Of a stretch of 64,000 nucleotides of DNA, positions 4,106 through 58,125 are shown one piece after another. Location: the NCBI GenBank assembly GCA_964577805.1, contig CAZOAG010000002.1:7139-71138 (forward strand). The letters are read 5' to 3'. The notes beneath the pieces were generated by a model. It ran no database searches. It was not told the origin of the DNA and saw only the letters and a list, made by a program, of their open reading frames with translations. The translations under genes were made by a program, and so were the position numbers. This DNA comes from an uncultured Opitutales bacterium. Lineage in GTDB: Bacteria > Verrucomicrobiota > Verrucomicrobiia > Opitutales > JAIRKQ01. The first letter of the stretch is position 1. Every line of letters starts with the position of its first letter.

Positions 4106-6202
4106 TCATTTTTTAATATCGTTAATATTTTGTGCAGATTTTTGTACCAATGGTTCTCCAGTTGGAGAAATAGTATGTGCTGTCACAAAAATCAATAAAT
4201 TCCGTTTTTGCGTAGTTTCACTTTTTGATTTGAACAACTTTCCCAATAATGGCAGACTTCCCAATATCGGCACTTTGTCATGGATTTCTTTTACCTCTTC
4301 ACGGGTCAAACCGCCCATTACTACTGTAGCACCATCACAAATATTTACTTCTGTATGAATCTCTCGTGTTGAAAAAATTGGTTGATAAAACCCTGATGGT
4401 ACTGTCACTGTTGTCCCAGAAGAAACAGCAACATTAACACCACCATATTCTACAAACCCTTCAAATTCTGTCACCTTCGGTTCTAACTGCAAACTGATTG
4501 TTTTATCAACTTCTACTGTCGGGGTCACACTCATTTCAACACCAATATTCCGCATAGTAAAATTTTGTGGTGTGCCAGATGTTATTGTAACACCAGCAGA
4601 ACTTGAAGATGTCCCGAATGATGATCCTGCACCGACTTCAGAATGTGTATCTCCATAATGTTGTGGATATCGTAATTCCATTGCTACTGTAATATCTGCT
4701 GTTTTCCCAGATAATACTGTTAATTTCGGTGCGCTCATCAGGTCAGTCCCTGTATGCTGTTCTAATGCTTGTATTAATACATTGCATTGTACACTGTTCA
4801 ATACTCCTGTAAAATTTGATAATGGGATGGAATCTACCCCTAGATTCAATTGTCCTGGAATATTTGGTGAATTGTTCGTGACAGTGATTGGAACTGCTCC
4901 TGCACTGACAATTTTACCATCACCACTAGAAAAATTATTCGATGCAAATGCTTGTGATAATGTCCTCAAATTATCATGCGCAACACCATCTGATGTCTTC
5001 CCAGTGGTAAAAAATGATTTACTGACATCACGATTGGAAATATTCCATCGAAGGCCCAATTCTTCCAATACTCCTTGTTGTACTTCTAAAAATTTTGTTT
5101 CTATTTCAACCTGCTGTACTTCAGTATATTTTTGCAAAATTCGTCCAATTTTTTCTAGATTTTTATGTGTCGTCGTGACGATTATTTGAGCACCATCGAA
5201 TGCCAATGAATTCATTGTGGTGTTTGAAAAATCTATCCCTGCACGATGAAAAAATTCTTTTATAGCGCATTCATCATCAATGATAGTATTATGATTATCG
5301 TTATATGACATATCATGATGGTTTATTGTTTGAACACCAGTCAATCTGATTAATGTCGCACGTGATATTGGAAAAAATTCTGTCTCGACAATATCTTCCG
5401 CCCGGCTTTTATGATAAAATATTACGGCATCATGTGTTATATCAAATTGCAGATTGGCAGATTGTGATATTAATTCAATAACACGATATAATGATAAACC
5501 TTTTAAATTTAATGAAACATCATGTGCTGCTTTATCAGCACCAGCATCCAATAATATAAAATTTATACATTGTGAAGTCCCACTGCCTGAGGTTTGATAT
5601 TGTTCTGCATAATTCGACAATGTATCAATAACATTCGACAATGGAGCATTAGAAAATTGAATATGTGGGATGATGATATTATGAATTTTTTGAGATAGTG
5701 GATTATTATATAATGTTCTTGTATGAATTTTTTCATCATTTGGTGGAACTGTCGGTAATGACCATTGCGCATCAACATCATTTAATAAATCATCCCGTGT
5801 ACCATCACGGACATCTTGTTCATCATGCGGAAAGATTAATGGTGATGAAATATATTTTGCTGGTAATACATCAGGCATACCATCGATCGGATCATCTTCT
5901 CGACAAGAATTTTCTTCAGTTGTTATCGAATTTTCAACATCCTTATTATTACATTTTTCATGTTTATTAGCAACTTCTTCATAATTGATTACACGTCCAT
6001 CATCAGAAAGATTAATATTCTCATTATATTCACTAATAACACCTGATATTGTTTGATTATGATGTTTTGTCGTATGATGCCTGCCTGCTGTTCGATTATC
6101 ACATACATGATGCATCAATTGATAAATATCATCGCAATATCCATAATGGTATATAAATAATGATATTACAAATACCCCGATCGATCTAATTCCCACCCTC
6201 AC
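4106..6202 (-). CDS. secretin-family outer membrane channel (GspD/PilQ-like), GTG start
   Basis: The C-terminal secretin domain ends GGLTREEVKEIHDKVPILGSLPLLGKLFKSKSETTQKRNLLIFVTAHTISP. An N-terminal signal-like segment is followed by a ~170-aa His/Asn/Asp-rich extension. No partner T2SS/T4P genes are adjacent. Confidence 0.8.
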   Translation of the reverse strand: MRVGIRSIGVFVISLFIYHYGYCDDIYQLMHHVCDNRTAGRHHTTKHHNQTISGVISEYNENINLSDDGRVINYEEVANKHEKCNNKDVENSITTEENSCREDDPIDGMPDVLPAKYISSPLIFPHDEQDVRDGTRDDLLNDVDAQWSLPTVPPNDEKIHTRTLYNNPLSQKIHNIIIPHIQFSNAPLSNVIDTLSNYAEQYQTSGSGTSQCINFILLDAGADKAAHDVSLNLKGLSLYRVIELISQSANLQFDITHDAVIFYHKSRAEDIVETEFFPISRATLIRLTGVQTINHHDMSYNDNHNTIIDDECAIKEFFHRAGIDFSNTTMNSLAFDGAQIIVTTTHKNLEKIGRILQKYTEVQQVEIETKFLEVQQGVLEELGLRWNISNRDVSKSFFTTGKTSDGVAHDNLRTLSQAFASNNFSSGDGKIVSAGAVPITVTNNSPNIPGQLNLGVDSIPLSNFTGVLNSVQCNVLIQALEQHTGTDLMSAPKLTVLSGKTADITVAMELRYPQHYGDTHSEVGAGSSFGTSSSSAGVTITSGTPQNFTMRNIGVEMSVTPTVEVDKTISLQLEPKVTEFEGFVEYGGVNVAVSSGTTVTVPSGFYQPIFSTREIHTEVNICDGATVVMGGLTREEVKEIHDKVPILGSLPLLGKLFKSKSETTQKRNLLIFVTAHTISPTGEPLVQKSAQNINDIKK

Positions 6203-52674: not shown

Positions 52675-54351
52675 ATGATAGAATTTAAAAAAGAAAATAA
52701 TAGTAACGAAGAAACTTGTACGGATGAAAGGTTTGTTGAGCGGATAAAAGAAGAGGCTGCTGAACGGGCAAAACAACAACCAATGTTACAACGTATAATT
52801 AAATCATTGTCGCGGACAGATCGTACGTTTCGGGAATTGATTTTTAGTAATGAATTGACAGAAAACCGTGTGGCGCTGTTAGAAGACGGAATTTTAGAAA
52901 ATTATGAATTTGAACGTCTAAATGAACGAAGTGATGTCGGTGCGATATATAAGGGAAAGATTCAAAATCTTGAACCAGGATTGAAGGCAGCATTTGTCGA
53001 CATTGGGGAGTCGAAGAACGCATTTTTGCACTACTGGGATATTTTGCCAGCTGTTAGTGAAAAAACATTCGAAGTCACTCGTAAGACAGGGAAAAAACAA
53101 AAACAAATAACATTGAAAGATATTCCAGATTTGTATGCAATTGGTACAGATATCATGGTACAAATTACGAAGGGCCAAATCGGAACAAAAGGTCCTCGAG
53201 TAACAACAAATATAGCACTTCCTGGAAAATGTCTTGTGTTGATGCCATTTTCTGAAGAATGTGGCATTTCAAAAAAAATCGAGGATGAAAAAGAACGTGC
53301 TCGATTGCGCGATATTGTCAATAAGTTGACCATCCCAGATGGCATGGGGGTAATTGTGCGTACAGCTGGTGTAGGGAAAAAAGCACGATATTTTGTACGT
53401 GATCTTCACATGTTATTGCAAGAGTGGCAATCCGTAATGTCGAAATATGAAAATAATGATAAACCAACATTGTTGCACCAAGAGCCAGATTTAGTAGAAC
53501 GTGTTGTTCGTGACTTTTTGACTGATGATGTTGATCGTGTCATTGTCAATGATTCTGCTATTTTGGACAGGATGTTACATGCTGTTGAAATGATATCCCC
53601 ACGGTCCAAGCAAAAGTTTCATTTATTTTCAGAAAATATTCCTGTTTTTGAACGGTTTAATATTGAACGGCAGATAGAACAAACTTTTCGTCGACGTGTC
53701 CCATTATCATGTGGTGGTGAAATAGTCATTCATGAGACGGAAGCATTGACATCAATCGATGTTAATACCAGCAATTTCAAGTCGAAGGATAAAGACGGCA
53801 ATAATTTTATTTATAATTTAAATTTTGAAGCAGGGAAAGAAATTGCTCGTCAATTACGATTACGAAATATTGGTGGTTTGATTGTGATAGATTTTATCGA
53901 TATGGTAAATAAACGCGATCGGAATAATATTTTCAATTTGATGCGTACAGAATTGAGCAAGGATAAAGCACGAGTATTTGTCCTGCCAATATCAACATTA
54001 GGATTGATGGAAGTTTCTCGTCAACGACATTCACAAAGTAACTGTAGTGAAATGCGTGCGATATGTCGTTATTGTAATGGAGATGGGTATATTAAATCTC
54101 CGCGAACAATGTGTAGTGAAATATACCGCAAGATTGCCAGTTGTTTACAACAAAAACGTGAAAAAGTATCGATGGATACACGTGTTCAAATAAAGGTATT
54201 GTTGAACAATGATGTTTTGGATCATATGAAGGGTGACGAAGCGTCATTATTAACAGTAGAAGAACGATTTAATGCAAAATTGATGTTCCGGGCAGATCCA
54301 TCATTGCATATAGAACATTATAAAATCTTGGATGTAACAACGATGTCATAG
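52675..54351 (+). CDS. rng: ribonuclease G/E family endoribonuclease
   Basis: S1 domain (GAIYKGKIQNLEPGLKAAFVDIGESKNAFLH) and catalytic core (TEALTSIDVNT; GGLIVIDFIDM). 558 aa. Confidence 0.88.
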   Translation: MIEFKKENNSNEETCTDERFVERIKEEAAERAKQQPMLQRIIKSLSRTDRTFRELIFSNELTENRVALLEDGILENYEFERLNERSDVGAIYKGKIQNLEPGLKAAFVDIGESKNAFLHYWDILPAVSEKTFEVTRKTGKKQKQITLKDIPDLYAIGTDIMVQITKGQIGTKGPRVTTNIALPGKCLVLMPFSEECGISKKIEDEKERARLRDIVNKLTIPDGMGVIVRTAGVGKKARYFVRDLHMLLQEWQSVMSKYENNDKPTLLHQEPDLVERVVRDFLTDDVDRVIVNDSAILDRMLHAVEMISPRSKQKFHLFSENIPVFERFNIERQIEQTFRRRVPLSCGGEIVIHETEALTSIDVNTSNFKSKDKDGNNFIYNLNFEAGKEIARQLRLRNIGGLIVIDFIDMVNKRDRNNIFNLMRTELSKDKARVFVLPISTLGLMEVSRQRHSQSNCSEMRAICRYCNGDGYIKSPRTMCSEIYRKIASCLQQKREKVSMDTRVQIKVLLNNDVLDHMKGDEASLLTVEERFNAKLMFRADPSLHIEHYKILDVTTMS

Positions 54352-54488
54352 TGTCATAAAGCTATGATATTCTTTCTGGCATGATTCTGAGGCGAGTGTT
54401 TTGATGCAATTGAATTATAATATGAGGTTATAGTTTTCGTGATGAACAAATCTTTCGAGGGATAAACTATTTTATTGATAGAAAAATC

Positions 54489-54517
54489 TTGTTAAGATGT
54501 TGAATGTTTGGTATAAT
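54489..54517 (+). promoter_or_regulatory. sigma70-type promoter with extended -10
   Basis: -35 TTGTTA (54489-54494), a 17-nt spacer, then TGgTATAAT (-10 TATAAT at 54512-54517). Confidence 0.55.
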
Positions 54518-54583
54518 GGTTGCCGCATTTTAGCAGAGAACGGTATTCTGCATGGATGCATGAGAATTCAAAAAGGAGGAAAT

Positions 54584-54622
54584 ATGTGTGACTGTGGATG
54601 CGGCGGCGGAAAGAAAAAATAA
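54584..54622 (+). CDS. 12-codon mini-ORF MCDCGCGGGKKK
   Basis: ATG preceded by AAAGGAGGA at optimal spacing. It lies between a good promoter (54489-54517) and a terminator (54647-54683). Confidence 0.45.
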   Translation: MCDCGCGGGKKK

Positions 54623-54646
54623 ATCATTTCAATGATTTAATGGAAT

Positions 54647-54683
54647 GGCCATTGGTAATCTTACCAGTGGCTATCTTGTTTTT
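54647..54683 (+). terminator. rho-independent terminator/attenuator
   Basis: Stem ggccattggtaa / ttaccagtggc (one G-U pair), 3-nt loop, then TATCTTGTTTTT. Confidence 0.65.
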
Positions 54684-54747
54684 ACGAAAAAATCATTGAC
54701 TAATTTTGTCATTCAATCATCCTTCTTCGAGAGAAGAGGAGTGTGAT

Positions 54748-55251
54748 ATGGCAATCGATACATTCACTGATATTTTGCAAGAATTTGCTAGGAGGATAAA
54801 TTTGATAGGGTTACAAATTGATCCATCTGGGTATTGTTGTTTAGATGTTGACCATGGAACATTGGTACATCTAAAGTATGAAAATAAGCGCGATAATATG
54901 ATTTTTATTTCAGAAATTGGTGAAATTCCTGAAATGAATAAGGGTGCTATTTTGCGATATTTGTTGCGTATGAATGATAATGCTGAAGAGAGCAAGGGCA
55001 TGACGTTATCGTATAATAGTGATAGTAATAATGCTGCAATAGGATATCAGTATCCATTACGGTTTATGGATATCACTAAATTTGAAGAGTTTTTCAAAAT
55101 GTTTTTGGATGAAGTCGAGCGCTGGAAGGGCAAGATGGAGCTATATACTCAAGGAACACTTCCTAATGGTGAAGAAGGAGTAGAAGGTGCTGCAACGACT
55201 GATACAAAATATGATGCTCCGAGCACACCAGCATTTATGATCGGTGCATGA
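54748..55251 (+). CDS. type III secretion class I chaperone (CesT/Tir-chaperone family-like)
   Basis: 167 aa from ATG 54748 (SD agaggag). The pattern FARRINL..LQIDPSGYCCLDVDHGTLVHLKYE...MIFISEIGEIP....ILRYLLRMN....GMTLSYN....A.GYQYPL is typical. Confidence 0.65.
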   Translation: MAIDTFTDILQEFARRINLIGLQIDPSGYCCLDVDHGTLVHLKYENKRDNMIFISEIGEIPEMNKGAILRYLLRMNDNAEESKGMTLSYNSDSNNAAIGYQYPLRFMDITKFEEFFKMFLDEVERWKGKMELYTQGTLPNGEEGVEGAATTDTKYDAPSTPAFMIGA

Positions 55252-55516
55252 TTTTAAAATTTTCTATTCATAATTATTGATTACTGACCGACGGCCTGTG
55301 CAGTTTTTGTGCAGGTTGTTGTGATTTTACGATGAATACGATACCAATCGTTTTATTGATCCCGATACTAGACATATTAATTCTGAATAGTATTTCCAAA
55401 ATGCCATTATATTAGTACGTTAAATCGTTTTTAAATATACAGTTGTGCCATAAAAATTGTTGTAAAGTAATCAGGCGATTATAAATGCCTATTTAGGAGT
55501 TTCCGAAATCATTTTC

Positions 55517-55938
55517 CGGCGACCCTGAAAGTCCGCGGCGACCCTGAACTTGTCAGAAGACACGACACTGGTTGGTCACACGATGGTCTGATTGTGTCAA
55601 ATGTCTTGATTTCACATTTTCGAAGACTTTGTTGTGATAGAAGAGCTGATCTTATAGGCATTATACACGAAGACATTATTTCGCCTGAGAGAAGTACAGT
55701 TTGCCGGTGATTCACGTTTGCAGAGGGCTTTAATTTTCAGCCAAGATGAGATTGTTAGAAAATATGATGTCGCTTGGTTGTCTGATATCGTCGGAATGAT
55801 TTTATTGGTCGGAGTATTACAACCCACCAGGGTTTCTGACAGCATTGGAAATTCCAAATCGCCATAGGATTCCTATTGGCCGATTACTTGCGTCGCCGAC
55901 GATCTGACACTGGTTGGTAACATGAGGATCTGATTTTG
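55517..55938. repeat. direct repeats in the chaperone-pgi gap
   Basis: 13-nt cggcgaccctgaa twice (55517-55529, 55536-55548). 33-nt repeat gacactggttggt.ac..ga.g..tctgatt.tg at 55564-55596 and 55906-55938 (28/33 identical, 342 bp apart). Confidence 0.8.
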
Positions 55939-56040
55939 CAGGAGTATTCCAATTCACAGACAACTTCTATTCGCAGATAATAGCGGATGGTTAATTCTCG
56001 AAACCCGCCGCTCAGATGATATTATTTTTTTGTTTAAGTC

Positions 56041-56106
<66 letters not shown>

Positions 56107-56556
56107 ATCGACCGTCAAGACATTCTATGGTTTTCTACCTGTGCTTTAAATGTCTTTAGAAGTTTGTTTAGAGAACCTTTGAATAACCTTTGAAGTGTAT
56201 TTGCTGTTTCTTTCAACTTTCTTCAAAGTTCAGAATTACATCGAGTATTTTTAGGCCGCCATAAGATATTGCTTGGAGTTGTCATAGAGCTTCGTCATGG
56301 CTTTTTCGGCGCTATTTTGAACTTCCTTTATGGCTTGTTTACCGTGTTTTTTTTGGTTTTTTTAGCCTTTTCTTATAGTTTGTATCTAGGTCTTGATGAT
56401 TGCAAATACGATTTGCAGGCTATGTTTGTAATGATTCATTGGTCGTGTTGTGCTCAGACAATCATTATGGTACGATTTTTGATAAAAATCTAATGGCATA
56501 ATATGTATTCTACATTGCTCTTATGATGTTTTTTTACATATTGCTGTTGATAACAT

Positions 56557-58125
56557 ATGGATATTGCTGAATTTTTCCGACGTTGTTATTTTAGGGATGA
56601 TAAGTTAGGCCTTTCAATTGATTTTAGTCATATTGATTTATCTGATGATTCCGTAGAAAATATGCTGTCCAAACAAAAACGTGCCATGGAAGAAATGGAA
56701 CGCTTAGAAGCAGGAGATATTGTTAATATCGATGAAAATAGGATGGTCGGACATTATTGGTTGCGTGCTCCTGAACTATCCCCTACTGATAATATTCGTG
56801 ATGATATTATCAATATGCAACATCGTATAAAATCATTTGCGAATGATATTCATGCTGGAAATATTGTCGGAGATGGTGGTAAATTTTCGAATATTTTATG
56901 GATAGGAATAGGTGGTTCATGTTTGGGCCCGCAGTTAATCGCTGATAGCCTGTCAAATGATCATTCTATGAAGATTGCATTCATTGATAATACTGATCCT
57001 GATGGTATCGATCGCATATTATCATCGTTAGTTGGAGAACTTGGAAAAACATTAGTCGTTGTTGCGTCTAAATCAGGAAGTACACCGGAACCGCGCAATG
57101 CGATGAAAGAAGTTATTCATGCATATCAATTGGCTGGGCTCTCATTTGCTCGCCATGCTGTTGCAATAACAGGAAATGATAGCTTGCTCGATAAACAAGC
57201 GCGACAAGAAGGGTGGATCGCACGATTTCCTATGTGGGATTGGGTCGGTGGCCGCACTAGTATTTTTTCTTCGGTTGGACTATTATGTGCAGCATTATTA
57301 GGAATTGATATTGAATCATTTCTTTCAGGTGCACATGATATGGATATATTGACACGTCGGAATGATAATAATCCTGCGATGAAACTAGCAATGGCATGGT
57401 ATAATGCATGTGATGGAATTGGACGGAAGGATATGGTTGTATTGCCATATAAAGATCGATTGGGATATTTTGCGCGATATCTTCAACAATTAGTCATGGA
57501 GTCGTTAGGAAAATCACATGATCGCGATGGTAAGTGTGTGAGACAGGGCATGACGGTATATGGCAACAAAGGTACGACGGATCAACATGCCTTTGTTCAA
57601 CAATTGCGAGATGGTATTCAAAATTTTTTTGTTACAATAATTACTGTATTGAAAAACTGCAGCAACCCGTCGATCGATGTTGATAATGACGGTATGACAT
57701 CCGGAGATTATTTAAATGGTTTTGCATTGGGAACAATCGATGCATTGTCAGAAAATGGCACACAAGTTATCCATGTCATATTGGATGATTTTAATGCGTA
57801 TCATCTTGGCGCATTGATTGCATTGTATGAACGTGCTGTTGGGATTTATGCGAGTTTTATCAATATTAATGCTTATCATCAGCCTGGTGTAGAGGCAGGG
57901 AAAAAAGCAGCTGCAAAAGTATTGAAATGGCAGAATGATATTATATCTGCATTGAAGGACGATGGTAATAATGGCATGACATTAAATTCATTTGTTCAGG
58001 ACTTGCCAGATTGCAAAGATCCATCTCTATTATTTAAATTATTGGAACATATGGTAGCGAATGGCATTTTAAAATACGAACAATCAGATTTGATGCCACT
58101 TCAGCGAAAATACGTGATTGCTTAG
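56557..58125 (+). CDS. pgi: glucose-6-phosphate isomerase
   Basis: GIGGSCLGPQ, VVASKSGSTPEP, and GKGTTDQHAFVQQLRDG. 522 aa. Confidence 0.92.
   Translation: MDIAEFFRRCYFRDDKLGLSIDFSHIDLSDDSVENMLSKQKRAMEEMERLEAGDIVNIDENRMVGHYWLRAPELSPTDNIRDDIINMQHRIKSFANDIHAGNIVGDGGKFSNILWIGIGGSCLGPQLIADSLSNDHSMKIAFIDNTDPDGIDRILSSLVGELGKTLVVVASKSGSTPEPRNAMKEVIHAYQLAGLSFARHAVAITGNDSLLDKQARQEGWIARFPMWDWVGGRTSIFSSVGLLCAALLGIDIESFLSGAHDMDILTRRNDNNPAMKLAMAWYNACDGIGRKDMVVLPYKDRLGYFARYLQQLVMESLGKSHDRDGKCVRQGMTVYGNKGTTDQHAFVQQLRDGIQNFFVTIITVLKNCSNPSIDVDNDGMTSGDYLNGFALGTIDALSENGTQVIHVILDDFNAYHLGALIALYERAVGIYASFININAYHQPGVEAGKKAAAKVLKWQNDIISALKDDGNNGMTLNSFVQDLPDCKDPSLLFKLLEHMVANGILKYEQSDLMPLQRKYVIA

Follow-up and report, generated by a model that had tools for sequence, protein, structure and literature searches.

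A putative 12-codon Cys-Gly-Lys mini-gene upstream of a type III secretion chaperone gene in Puniceicoccales

Stand-alone bacterial genes of about ten codons have a precedent in mccA, the 7-codon gene encoding the precursor of microcin C. Gene callers overlook genes of about 12 codons, and to our knowledge very few genes of this size are known that serve to produce a peptide as such instead of encoding a regulatory leader. A Cys-rich composition with CxC motifs and without hydrophobic residues is a metallothionein-like trait, and the copper metallothionein of Neurospora crassa, which comprises about 25 residues, begins with the sequence GDCGCSG. The N-terminus of HypB from Escherichia coli reads MCTTCGCG. 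The CxxCGC motif of HypB has a picomolar affinity for Ni(II), which is coordinated in square-planar geometry by the N-terminal amine together with Cys2, Cys5 and Cys7; short peptides modelled on this motif likewise bind metal, about seven residues being sufficient for picomolar Ni binding (PMC12284835). Very short Cys-containing ORFs are also known from the mycobacterial 'Cys ribulon', in which polycysteine leaderless sORFs serve as attenuators (bioRxiv 10.1101/834739).

The locus that is compared here with these systems lies in a 64-kb stretch of DNA with a G+C content of 36.6%, referred to as the window, which originates from an AT-rich Puniceicoccales/Opitutales bacterium carrying a type III secretion system (T3SS); a literature search for T3SS-bearing Puniceicoccales returned no paper. 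The mini-gene is surrounded by rodA/ftsW, the gene of RNase G, a type III secretion (T3S) chaperone gene and pgi, and the window additionally encodes two secretins, one of them of the T3SS, as well as housekeeping functions. Neither metal-related genes nor hyp genes were found in the 64 kb, and no maturation genes flank the mini-gene. The mini-ORF was left uncalled in every public assembly of the locus. The mini-gene and its downstream neighbour are composed of the following features:

54482-54517 (+): promoter, consisting of a -35 box, a 17-nt spacer and an extended -10 box (consensus scan and sequence reading)
54482-54486 (+): A-tract of the mini-gene promoter
54489-54494 (+): -35 box TTGTTA, followed by the 17-nt spacer
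54509-54517 (+): extended -10 box TGgTATAAT, with TG at 54509-54510 and TATAAT at 54512-54517
54525-54559 (+): 5'-terminal stem-loop of the predicted mRNA (folding, -11.7 kcal/mol)
54572-54580 (+): Shine-Dalgarno (SD) sequence AAAGGAGGA, the GGAGG of which ends 4 nt before the ATG
54584-54622 (+): 12-codon ORF MCDCGCGGGKKK with its TAA stop codon
54620-54639 (+): small hairpin AAAUCAUUUCAAUGAUUU, overlapping the stop codon and present only in the window species and the relative L011
54645-54684 (+): intrinsic terminator, with a stem-loop at 54645-54674 followed by CTTGTTTTTA
54696-54701 (+): TTGACT box of the predicted chaperone promoter, belonging to the chaperone unit and not to the mini-gene
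54748-55251 (+): CesT-family T3S chaperone gene (Pfam PF05932, E=1.5e-15), the conserved downstream neighbour

Transcription of the mini-gene is predicted to start near position 54524 and to yield a compact transcript of about 160 nt with a 5' UTR of 60 nt, which folds well (z=-3.0) and begins with a stem-loop that is probably an mRNA stabiliser. The mini-ORF corresponds to the tail of a 41-aa ORF in the ORF listing. Three of the 12 residues of the deduced peptide are cysteines, located in the motifs CDC and CGC, and its overall composition (25% Cys, 33% Gly and 25% Lys) includes neither aromatic nor hydrophobic residues. The terminator hairpin is formed by 13 base pairs, five of them GC, with a 4-nt loop and a free energy of -18.3 kcal/mol. 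A preliminary description of this region had read the same set of signals, and all of them were recovered: the promoter (TTGTTA, 17 nt, TGgTATAAT) at 54489-54517, by sequence and consensus scan; a strong SD 4-5 nt before the ATG at 54584, which ranks first among 33 gene starts; the 12-codon ORF with three Cys and four Gly residues followed by KKK at 54584-54622; the stem-loop with T-run terminator at 54645-54684, by consensus scan and folding; and, 65 nt beyond the T-run, the T3S chaperone gene, which Pfam PF05932 assigns to the CesT family. The anatomy alone proves nothing, because promoter and terminator signals occur singly at chance frequency: 18 promoter-like sites were detected in the window compared with 21.3 expected from shuffled sequence, and four terminator-like sites compared with 2.9 expected, neither number exceeding chance.

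The SD sequence is a more distinctive element. The intergenic arrangement of GGAGG, 3-10 nt and ATG occurs only once in the 64 kb, namely in the mini-gene. The calculated anti-SD duplex of the mini-ORF (-11.6 kcal/mol) is the strongest among the 33 gene starts of the window, followed by that of the chaperone gene with -9.5 kcal/mol. The remaining 31 starts, including those of dnaK and groEL, are weaker than -6.6 kcal/mol, and SD use elsewhere in the window is nearly absent according to anti-SD pairing at the 33 starts. The mini-gene thus carries the strongest expression signals of its surroundings and is probably highly expressed and very highly translated.

Comparisons with known families yielded little. 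At the gathering score of Rfam 15, the window contains only tRNA matches, and a search of positions 54300-56600 at E<=10 returned matches at chance level only. Padded peptides of the Puniceicoccales gave no match in Pfam and NCBIfam at E<=10, a profile of the aligned peptides had 0 matches in the PDB, and no described family of such peptides was found in the literature. Two kinds of candidates were rejected: a precursor of the RiPP or microcin B17 type (leader peptide absent, no maturase genes nearby), and a lipoprotein or toxin peptide (hydrophobic segment absent). The mini-gene shares with mccA the tiny ORF, a strong ribosome-binding site, a hairpin behind the ORF and a peptide as product; mccA, however, is located in an operon with the genes for its modifying enzyme and for export, whereas the mini-gene is devoid of flanking maturation genes.

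The gene context was then compared among relatives of the window species by means of the chaperone gene. The 49 chaperone homologues that were detected derive, as far as they are named, from Puniceicoccales MAGs, and a scan of species-representative genomes yielded 22 chaperone loci in MAGs of Puniceicoccales/Opitutales, many of the isolate codes of which we take to denote termite-gut samples; the window species itself is represented by ten further contigs. Among related host-associated Verrucomicrobia, the mini-gene unit directly precedes the chaperone gene in the close relative L011 and in five diverged lineages with chaperones that share 66-71% identity with that of the window. The deduced peptides are:

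L011: identical to the peptide of the window
L013: MCACGKGGCGGKKK
L036: MCACGKGGCGGGGKKK
L016: MACGCGGKKKK
L025: MGCEKGGCGGGKKK
L034: MYCGEGGCGCGKGKK, containing one Tyr

In all units the mini-ORF is located immediately upstream of the chaperone gene and on the same strand. The promoters of the relatives consist of an A-tract, CTTGAY(A/T) and TAnAAT or CAAAAT at the position seen in the window. Each unit of the relatives also contains a short 5' hairpin of lineage-specific sequence (GCCUUCGGGC in L034 and L036, UUGCCUUUGGCAA in L016), and in each unit an A/C-rich stretch has CAAGGAGGA at its end and is followed by the ORF. The terminators of the relatives are unrelated GC-rich hairpins with T-runs at the equivalent position, whereas the changes in that of L011 preserve the stem. 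Conservation in relatives, which had been proposed as a check on the preliminary description, was thus confirmed for the peptide, whereas the hairpin is retained in position and not in sequence. The invariant block of the seven-sequence alignment is AAGGAGGA...ATG...GGATGYGG, the stretch AACAACAAGGAGGA represents the most conserved nucleotide block, and outside of the SD and the coding core, terminator included, the sequences differ between lineages. The aligned peptides comprise 11-16 residues with an invariant Cys, followed after zero or four residues by an invariant G-C-G, usually one further Cys, and a tail of two to four Lys residues. This comparison strongly supports the headline of the preliminary description, according to which the region is a self-contained mini-gene.

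The upstream neighbourhood of the units varies. The neighbour is RNase G in the window, a protein of about 530 aa in L013, L016 and L034, a divergent 855-aa gene in L025 and yet another gene in L036, so that the units occupy four different upstream contexts with a constant chaperone side. Relatives possess an ADH_zinc_N gene 3' of the chaperone gene, and a search of the window revealed no remnant of it. In the chaperone tree, the lineages with the mini-gene are scattered among lineages without it. The mini-gene is missing from the chaperone-upstream position in most sister lineages, including all examined loci of the chaperone homologues P0003, P0004, P0005, P0009 and P0012, and is therefore dispensable or mobile; a second copy was not found in about 294 kb of related Puniceicoccales DNA. 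The simplest history compatible with this distribution would be that of an old mini-gene at the chaperone-upstream position that has been lost or relocated several times.

The substitution pattern of the ORFs points to selection at the level of the encoded peptide. Seven substitutions, without exception at third codon positions, separate the ORFs of L013 and L036; six of these differences are synonymous and one exchanges the stop codon TAA for TAG, such that no amino acid is changed. If codon positions were hit randomly, the chance of this pattern would be about (1/3)^7. The same two ORFs are distinguished by an indel of 6 nt (GGCGGC) that is in frame. Between the window and L011, a single synonymous change is found in the 39-nt ORF, whereas the 60-nt 5' UTR shows four changes and the 61-nt 3' part shows eight, and third-position differences are in excess in most pairwise comparisons of the units. 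The Lys tails are encoded by a mixture of AAA and AAG codons, indicating that the amino acids and not an A-run have been kept. Start, stop, frame and amino-acid sequence are hence conserved with synonymous change in six lineages. The preliminary description had named an ORF broken in relatives between conserved flanks as the observation that would speak against a gene; the opposite was seen, with the ORF intact and the flanks diverging. On these comparative grounds, the mini-gene is very probably a genuine protein-coding gene.

With regard to the function of the product, the preliminary description had offered three readings, of which that of a metal- or redox-binding peptide fits best and that of an attenuator is disfavoured. 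The preference for the former is based on the conserved amino acids, the invariant C...GCG core and the resemblance to HypB and metallothioneins. We tentatively regard the product as a thiolate peptide that binds soft metals and acts as a minimal metallochaperone or metallothionein, and give this assignment a chance that falls somewhat short of even. In this model, a strong sigma-70-type promoter with an upstream A-tract would drive a monocistronic mRNA of about 160 nt, in which a protective 5' hairpin is followed by the only full SD of the region, the ORF encoding MCDCGCGGGKKK and its own intrinsic terminator. The functional product would be the peptide, selected at the amino-acid level. The initiator Met is presumably removed, as would be anticipated with Cys, Ala or Gly at position 2, and the abundant peptide might then bind Ni, Zn, Cu or Cd through the thiolates and perhaps also through the free N-terminal amine. 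Binding could occur either alone or as a small oligomer, with a role as metal buffer or chaperone, and the peptide would be comparable in its action to a minimal metallothionein or to a free-standing Ni site of the HypB N-terminus, with the lysine tail providing solubility and charge. Against metal binding, the peptides of L016 and L025 contain only two Cys residues; with only two invariant Cys overall, the data do not support an N1S3 site that is conserved within a single peptide. The metal-peptide model also leaves the constant adjacency to the T3S chaperone gene unaccounted for. Confirmation of the model would mean that a 12-mer is enough for metallothionein- or metallochaperone-like chemistry, would hint at a larger class of Cys-Gly-Lys micro-ORFs that has stayed hidden, and would provide a tractable peptide for metal and redox homeostasis in uncultured T3SS-bearing Verrucomicrobia.

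The likeness to metallothioneins consists in about 25% Cys in CxC and CG motifs, a Gly- and Lys-rich composition and a stand-alone, presumably strongly expressed gene. High Cys content in CxC, CxxC or CC motifs, low mass and few aromatic residues, as used to define metallothioneins, are all seen in the peptide, whereas similarity to a recognised metallothionein family was detected neither in Pfam and NCBIfam nor in the PDB. All metallothioneins described are moreover two to five times as long as the window peptide, and with two to three Cys a monomer cannot form a metal-thiolate cluster, which would require oligomerisation. HypB and the window peptide have in common the Met-Cys start, the ...C-G-C-G string and three thiolates within the six to seven N-terminal residues. 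The spacing in the window peptide (M-C-D-C-G-C) is nevertheless shorter by one residue than the HypB motif M-C-x-x-C-G-C, i.e. C-x-C-G-C instead of C-x-x-C-G-C, and the relatives display the patterns C-A-C-G-x3-C, A-C-G-C, G-C-x4-C and Y-C-G-x3-C-G-C. The NCBIfam HypB_prefix models matched none of the Puniceicoccales peptides. In addition, the HypB site is the prefix of a GTPase in a hyp/hydrogenase context, while the window peptide stands on its own, with 12 residues that end in a Lys tail; codon 12 is followed by a stop and then by the terminator, without GTPase domain or hyp context. A hypB pseudogene fragment was considered separately and rejected, since six lineages possess an undamaged tiny ORF that is followed by its own terminator. 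Membership of the peptide in the HypB-motif, metallothionein and attenuator families is thus not supported by these tests, although it may work like the first two.

Similar micro-ORFs were sought beyond Puniceicoccales with a pattern derived from six units, consisting of AAGGAGGA, 12-36 nt, GGATGYGGN, 0-12 nt and AARAARTAR. The scan of JGI metagenomes resulted in 34 matches, most of which are chance matches that are out of frame or located within long ORFs; the peptide/SD pattern gave 0 matches in viral contigs. The scanned metagenomes evidently did not include the termite samples of L034 and L036, so that absence from this set is uninformative. Four distinct metagenome sequences are tiny SD-led ORFs that are Cys-rich beyond the demands of the pattern, their likeness to the mini-ORF being partly forced by the search pattern (GCG...KK-stop plus SD). 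The micro-ORF encoding MCKTCGCGKK was present on four contigs with 61-62% G+C, possesses its own terminator and is located 143 nt from a divergent gene encoding a thioredoxin-reductase-like (TrxB-like) protein. A second one, encoding MGCGCGDKKKK, likewise has its own terminator, MCSTCGCGKKKPKK is encoded between argB and argD, and MGKKQCTCGCGCNCHKK just upstream of a gene that was assigned by eye to a putative helix-turn-helix (XRE-type) regulator. In Pfam and NCBIfam, the metagenome micro-ORFs yielded one zf-RING_16 match and one sub-threshold HypB_prefix match, the latter aligning MCSTCGCGKKKPKK with positions 1-11 of HypB_prefix_1 (E=0.013, below the cutoff). Both MCKTCGCGKK and MCSTCGCGKKKPKK reproduce the CxxCGC motif of HypB exactly, and in view of these matches free-standing copies of the minimal metal site seem to exist as genes in unrelated bacteria, the window peptide (C-x-C-G-C-G) being a near variant without full identity.

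A bolder extension of the metal-peptide model, which we consider rather doubtful, is that the peptide represents an abundant encoded thiol, either a counterpart of glutathione and phytochelatin or a minimal metallothionein, and belongs to a wider Cys-Gly-Lys class that includes copies of the HypB heptapeptide. If true, the mini-gene would be among the smallest stand-alone bacterial genes known, and the strict SD dependence within a genome almost devoid of SD sequences, together with the linkage to the T3S chaperone, could tie production of the peptide to the state of the ribosome or to the host-associated state.

As the main rival reading, the peptide might be a gene-encoded low-molecular-weight dithiol that acts via CxC/CGC as a redox buffer or as substrate of a thiol-disulfide oxidoreductase, an assignment we judge unlikely. 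CxC motifs are present in five of the six lineages (CDC/CGC, CAC or CGC), L025 with C-EKGG-C being the exception, and the tripeptide CGC is reportedly a PDI-like redox motif, as Woycechowsky and Raines are said to have described in 2003. The dithiol motif and the thioredoxin-reductase-like gene divergent from the MCKTCGCGKK micro-ORF at a distance of 143 nt keep the redox-buffer reading alive, and the very strong expression signals would be expected of a buffer. The TrxB neighbour, however, is single and anecdotal, and the Puniceicoccales loci show no linkage of the unit to redox genes. By sequence, redox activity and metal binding are indistinguishable.

The attenuator reading, for which the preliminary description had proposed a Cys/Gly-sensing leader peptide, would involve a leader peptide that senses Cys, Gly or Lys, such that ribosome stalling in the ORF controls read-through into the chaperone gene via the hairpin; the evidence makes this quite improbable. 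In its favour, the ORF is always located on the same strand directly upstream of the chaperone gene, and Cys-rich sORF attenuators are known from mycobacteria (bioRxiv 10.1101/834739). The chaperone gene, however, keeps a TTGACN box 42-75 nt upstream of its start in 30 of 30 loci. The mini-gene is absent from 23 of these, and where it is present the box is located downstream of its terminator. From this conserved box a separate chaperone promoter is predicted, and expression of the chaperone gene would be independent of read-through. The distance from the terminator to the chaperone start varies from about 60 to about 140 nt across the units. The alternative anti-terminator pairings that had been suggested as a check turned out to be weak: folding of the seven units up to the 5' arm of the terminator revealed no conserved antiterminator, the gain by alternative pairing of this arm being -1.9 to -7.9 kcal/mol whereas the terminators reach -7 to -18 kcal/mol, and the partners (UTR, ORF or spacer) differ between lineages. 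Weak pairing of the arm with the G-rich ORF, which would favour attenuation, is found in four of the seven units, but is expected from composition.

With respect to trpL-type attenuation, the mini-gene has the terminator, but neither a conserved, mutually exclusive antiterminator nor a downstream gene that is predicted to depend on read-through and is tied to the sensed amino acid; the chaperone gene is outside of Cys, Gly and Lys metabolism. The ORF contains just two to three non-consecutive Cys codons, and the conserved Gly and Lys residues, the latter with mixed AAA and AAG codons, would be superfluous for sensing. As in the mycobacterial polycysteine attenuators, another gene is preceded by a Cys-containing ORF that is very short and lacks annotation. 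The mycobacterial ORFs, in contrast, are leaderless, whereas the mini-ORF follows a leader of 60 nt that contains a perfect SD; their Cys codons are consecutive, whereas those of the mini-ORF are interspersed with Asp and Gly; and they are operonic with genes of Cys metabolism, whereas the mini-gene ends at its own terminator and is followed by a gene with a separate predicted promoter that is not Cys-related. The TTGACN box, the weak and inconsistent pairings, the small number of Cys codons and the missing hallmarks of polycysteine attenuators therefore argue against attenuation.

Still less probable is that the transcript of about 160 nt is mainly a regulatory or dual-function sRNA, or a decoy for SD-dependent ribosomes, with the peptide being secondary. 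The compact transcript with its 5' hairpin and terminator (z=-3.0) is compatible with an sRNA, as is the position of AACAACAAGGAGGA as the most conserved nucleotide block, and the near absence of SD use elsewhere in the window would fit a decoy. On the other hand, no Rfam match was obtained even at E<=10, conservation between lineages is confined to the SD and the coding core, the substitutions in the ORF follow the pattern of a translated sequence, and no target complementarity was identified. The dual-function sRNA of the preliminary description is thus not favoured.

A host-directed peptide with a Cys-rich N-terminus and a polybasic tail, linked to the T3SS via the neighbouring chaperone, is highly improbable. 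The linkage to the T3S chaperone gene is constant across rearrangements, a T3SS secretin is encoded within the window, and MGC... or Cys pairs in combination with KKK resemble eukaryotic palmitoylation and polybasic membrane-targeting motifs; yet 11-16 residues are far too short for a T3S signal and a chaperone-binding domain, and the N-termini (MC, MA, MG and MY) are inconsistent.

Finally, a chance coincidence of signals without a functional gene, for which the random frequency of single promoter-like and terminator-like sites could be cited, is effectively refuted by the comparative data, because the whole unit recurs in diverged relatives, being kept in six lineages with coding-type substitutions, and its SD is unique within the window.

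Shine-Dalgarno sequences are almost never present at the genes of the window, as anti-Shine-Dalgarno pairing is weaker than -6.6 kcal/mol at 31 of the 33 starts, including those of dnaK and groEL. The only two outliers are the 12-codon mini-ORF specifying the Cys/Gly/Lys-rich peptide (-11.6 kcal/mol) and the CesT-type chaperone gene located downstream (-9.5 kcal/mol). Shine-Dalgarno-led translation may represent a special regime in this organism.

The mini-gene promoter of the window shows the canonical 17-nt spacing, whereas 15 nt separate a TTGAY(A/T) or TTGACT box from the TAnAAT box in the termite-gut relatives. The shorter spacing covers the mini-gene promoters of five diverged loci (L013, L016, L025, L034 and L036) and the chaperone promoters of L012-L024, and an A-tract precedes these promoters of both genes. 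A further hairpin overlaps the stop codon of the mini-ORF:

54620-54639, perfect 8-bp hairpin, AAAUCAUU-UCAA-UGAUUU...

This structure is retained with an altered loop in the close relative L011 and is absent from relatives more distant than L011.

Micro-ORFs led by a Shine-Dalgarno sequence were also detected in unrelated metagenome contigs with G+C contents of 42-62%:

L040, 6318-6364 (-), peptide MCKTCGCGKK
L060, 1777-1824, peptide MGCGCGDKKKK
L062, 803-858, peptide MCSTCGCGKKKPKK
L069, 713-781 (-), peptide MGKKQCTCGCGCNCHKK

MCKTCGCGKK and MCSTCGCGKKKPKK are exact, free-standing copies of the CxxCGCG motif from the Ni-binding N-terminus of the hydrogenase maturation GTPase HypB. The MCKTCGCGKK micro-ORF is divergent from a TrxB-like gene, and that encoding MCSTCGCGKKKPKK is flanked by argB and argD.

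The family of CesT-type chaperones, comprising the protein encoded at 54748-55251 and those of alignment A1, shares a fully conserved motif, G-Y-C-C-x-D-V-D, in which two cysteines are adjacent, and His41 is likewise invariant across alignment A1. To our knowledge, this is unusual among CesT chaperones. A connection between the cysteine motif and the Cys-rich mini-gene peptide is pure speculation.

Most of the relatives that were checked carry an ADH_zinc_N gene after the chaperone gene. In the window, 1.3 kb without a long ORF (55252-56556) separate the chaperone gene from pgi, and no ADH_zinc_N remnant was detectable in this stretch, which includes the following elements:

55289-55321, terminator-like hairpin
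near 55550 and 55900, two direct repeats of approximately 30 nt (GACACTGGTTGGT.ACA.GA.G.TCTGATT)
near 56035-56100, array of approximately 11 hexamer units, (CCGAGA)n

Moreover, the window contains two secretin genes:

26809-28671 (+), secretin
4106-6115 (-), secretin

One of the deduced proteins is of the T3SS SctC type with T3S_SPI-1_N0 and Secretin_N domains, the second one being a plain secretin. Together with a T2SSE ATPase gene and a prepilin-like gene located nearby, they fit a host-associated lifestyle of this Puniceicoccales lineage.
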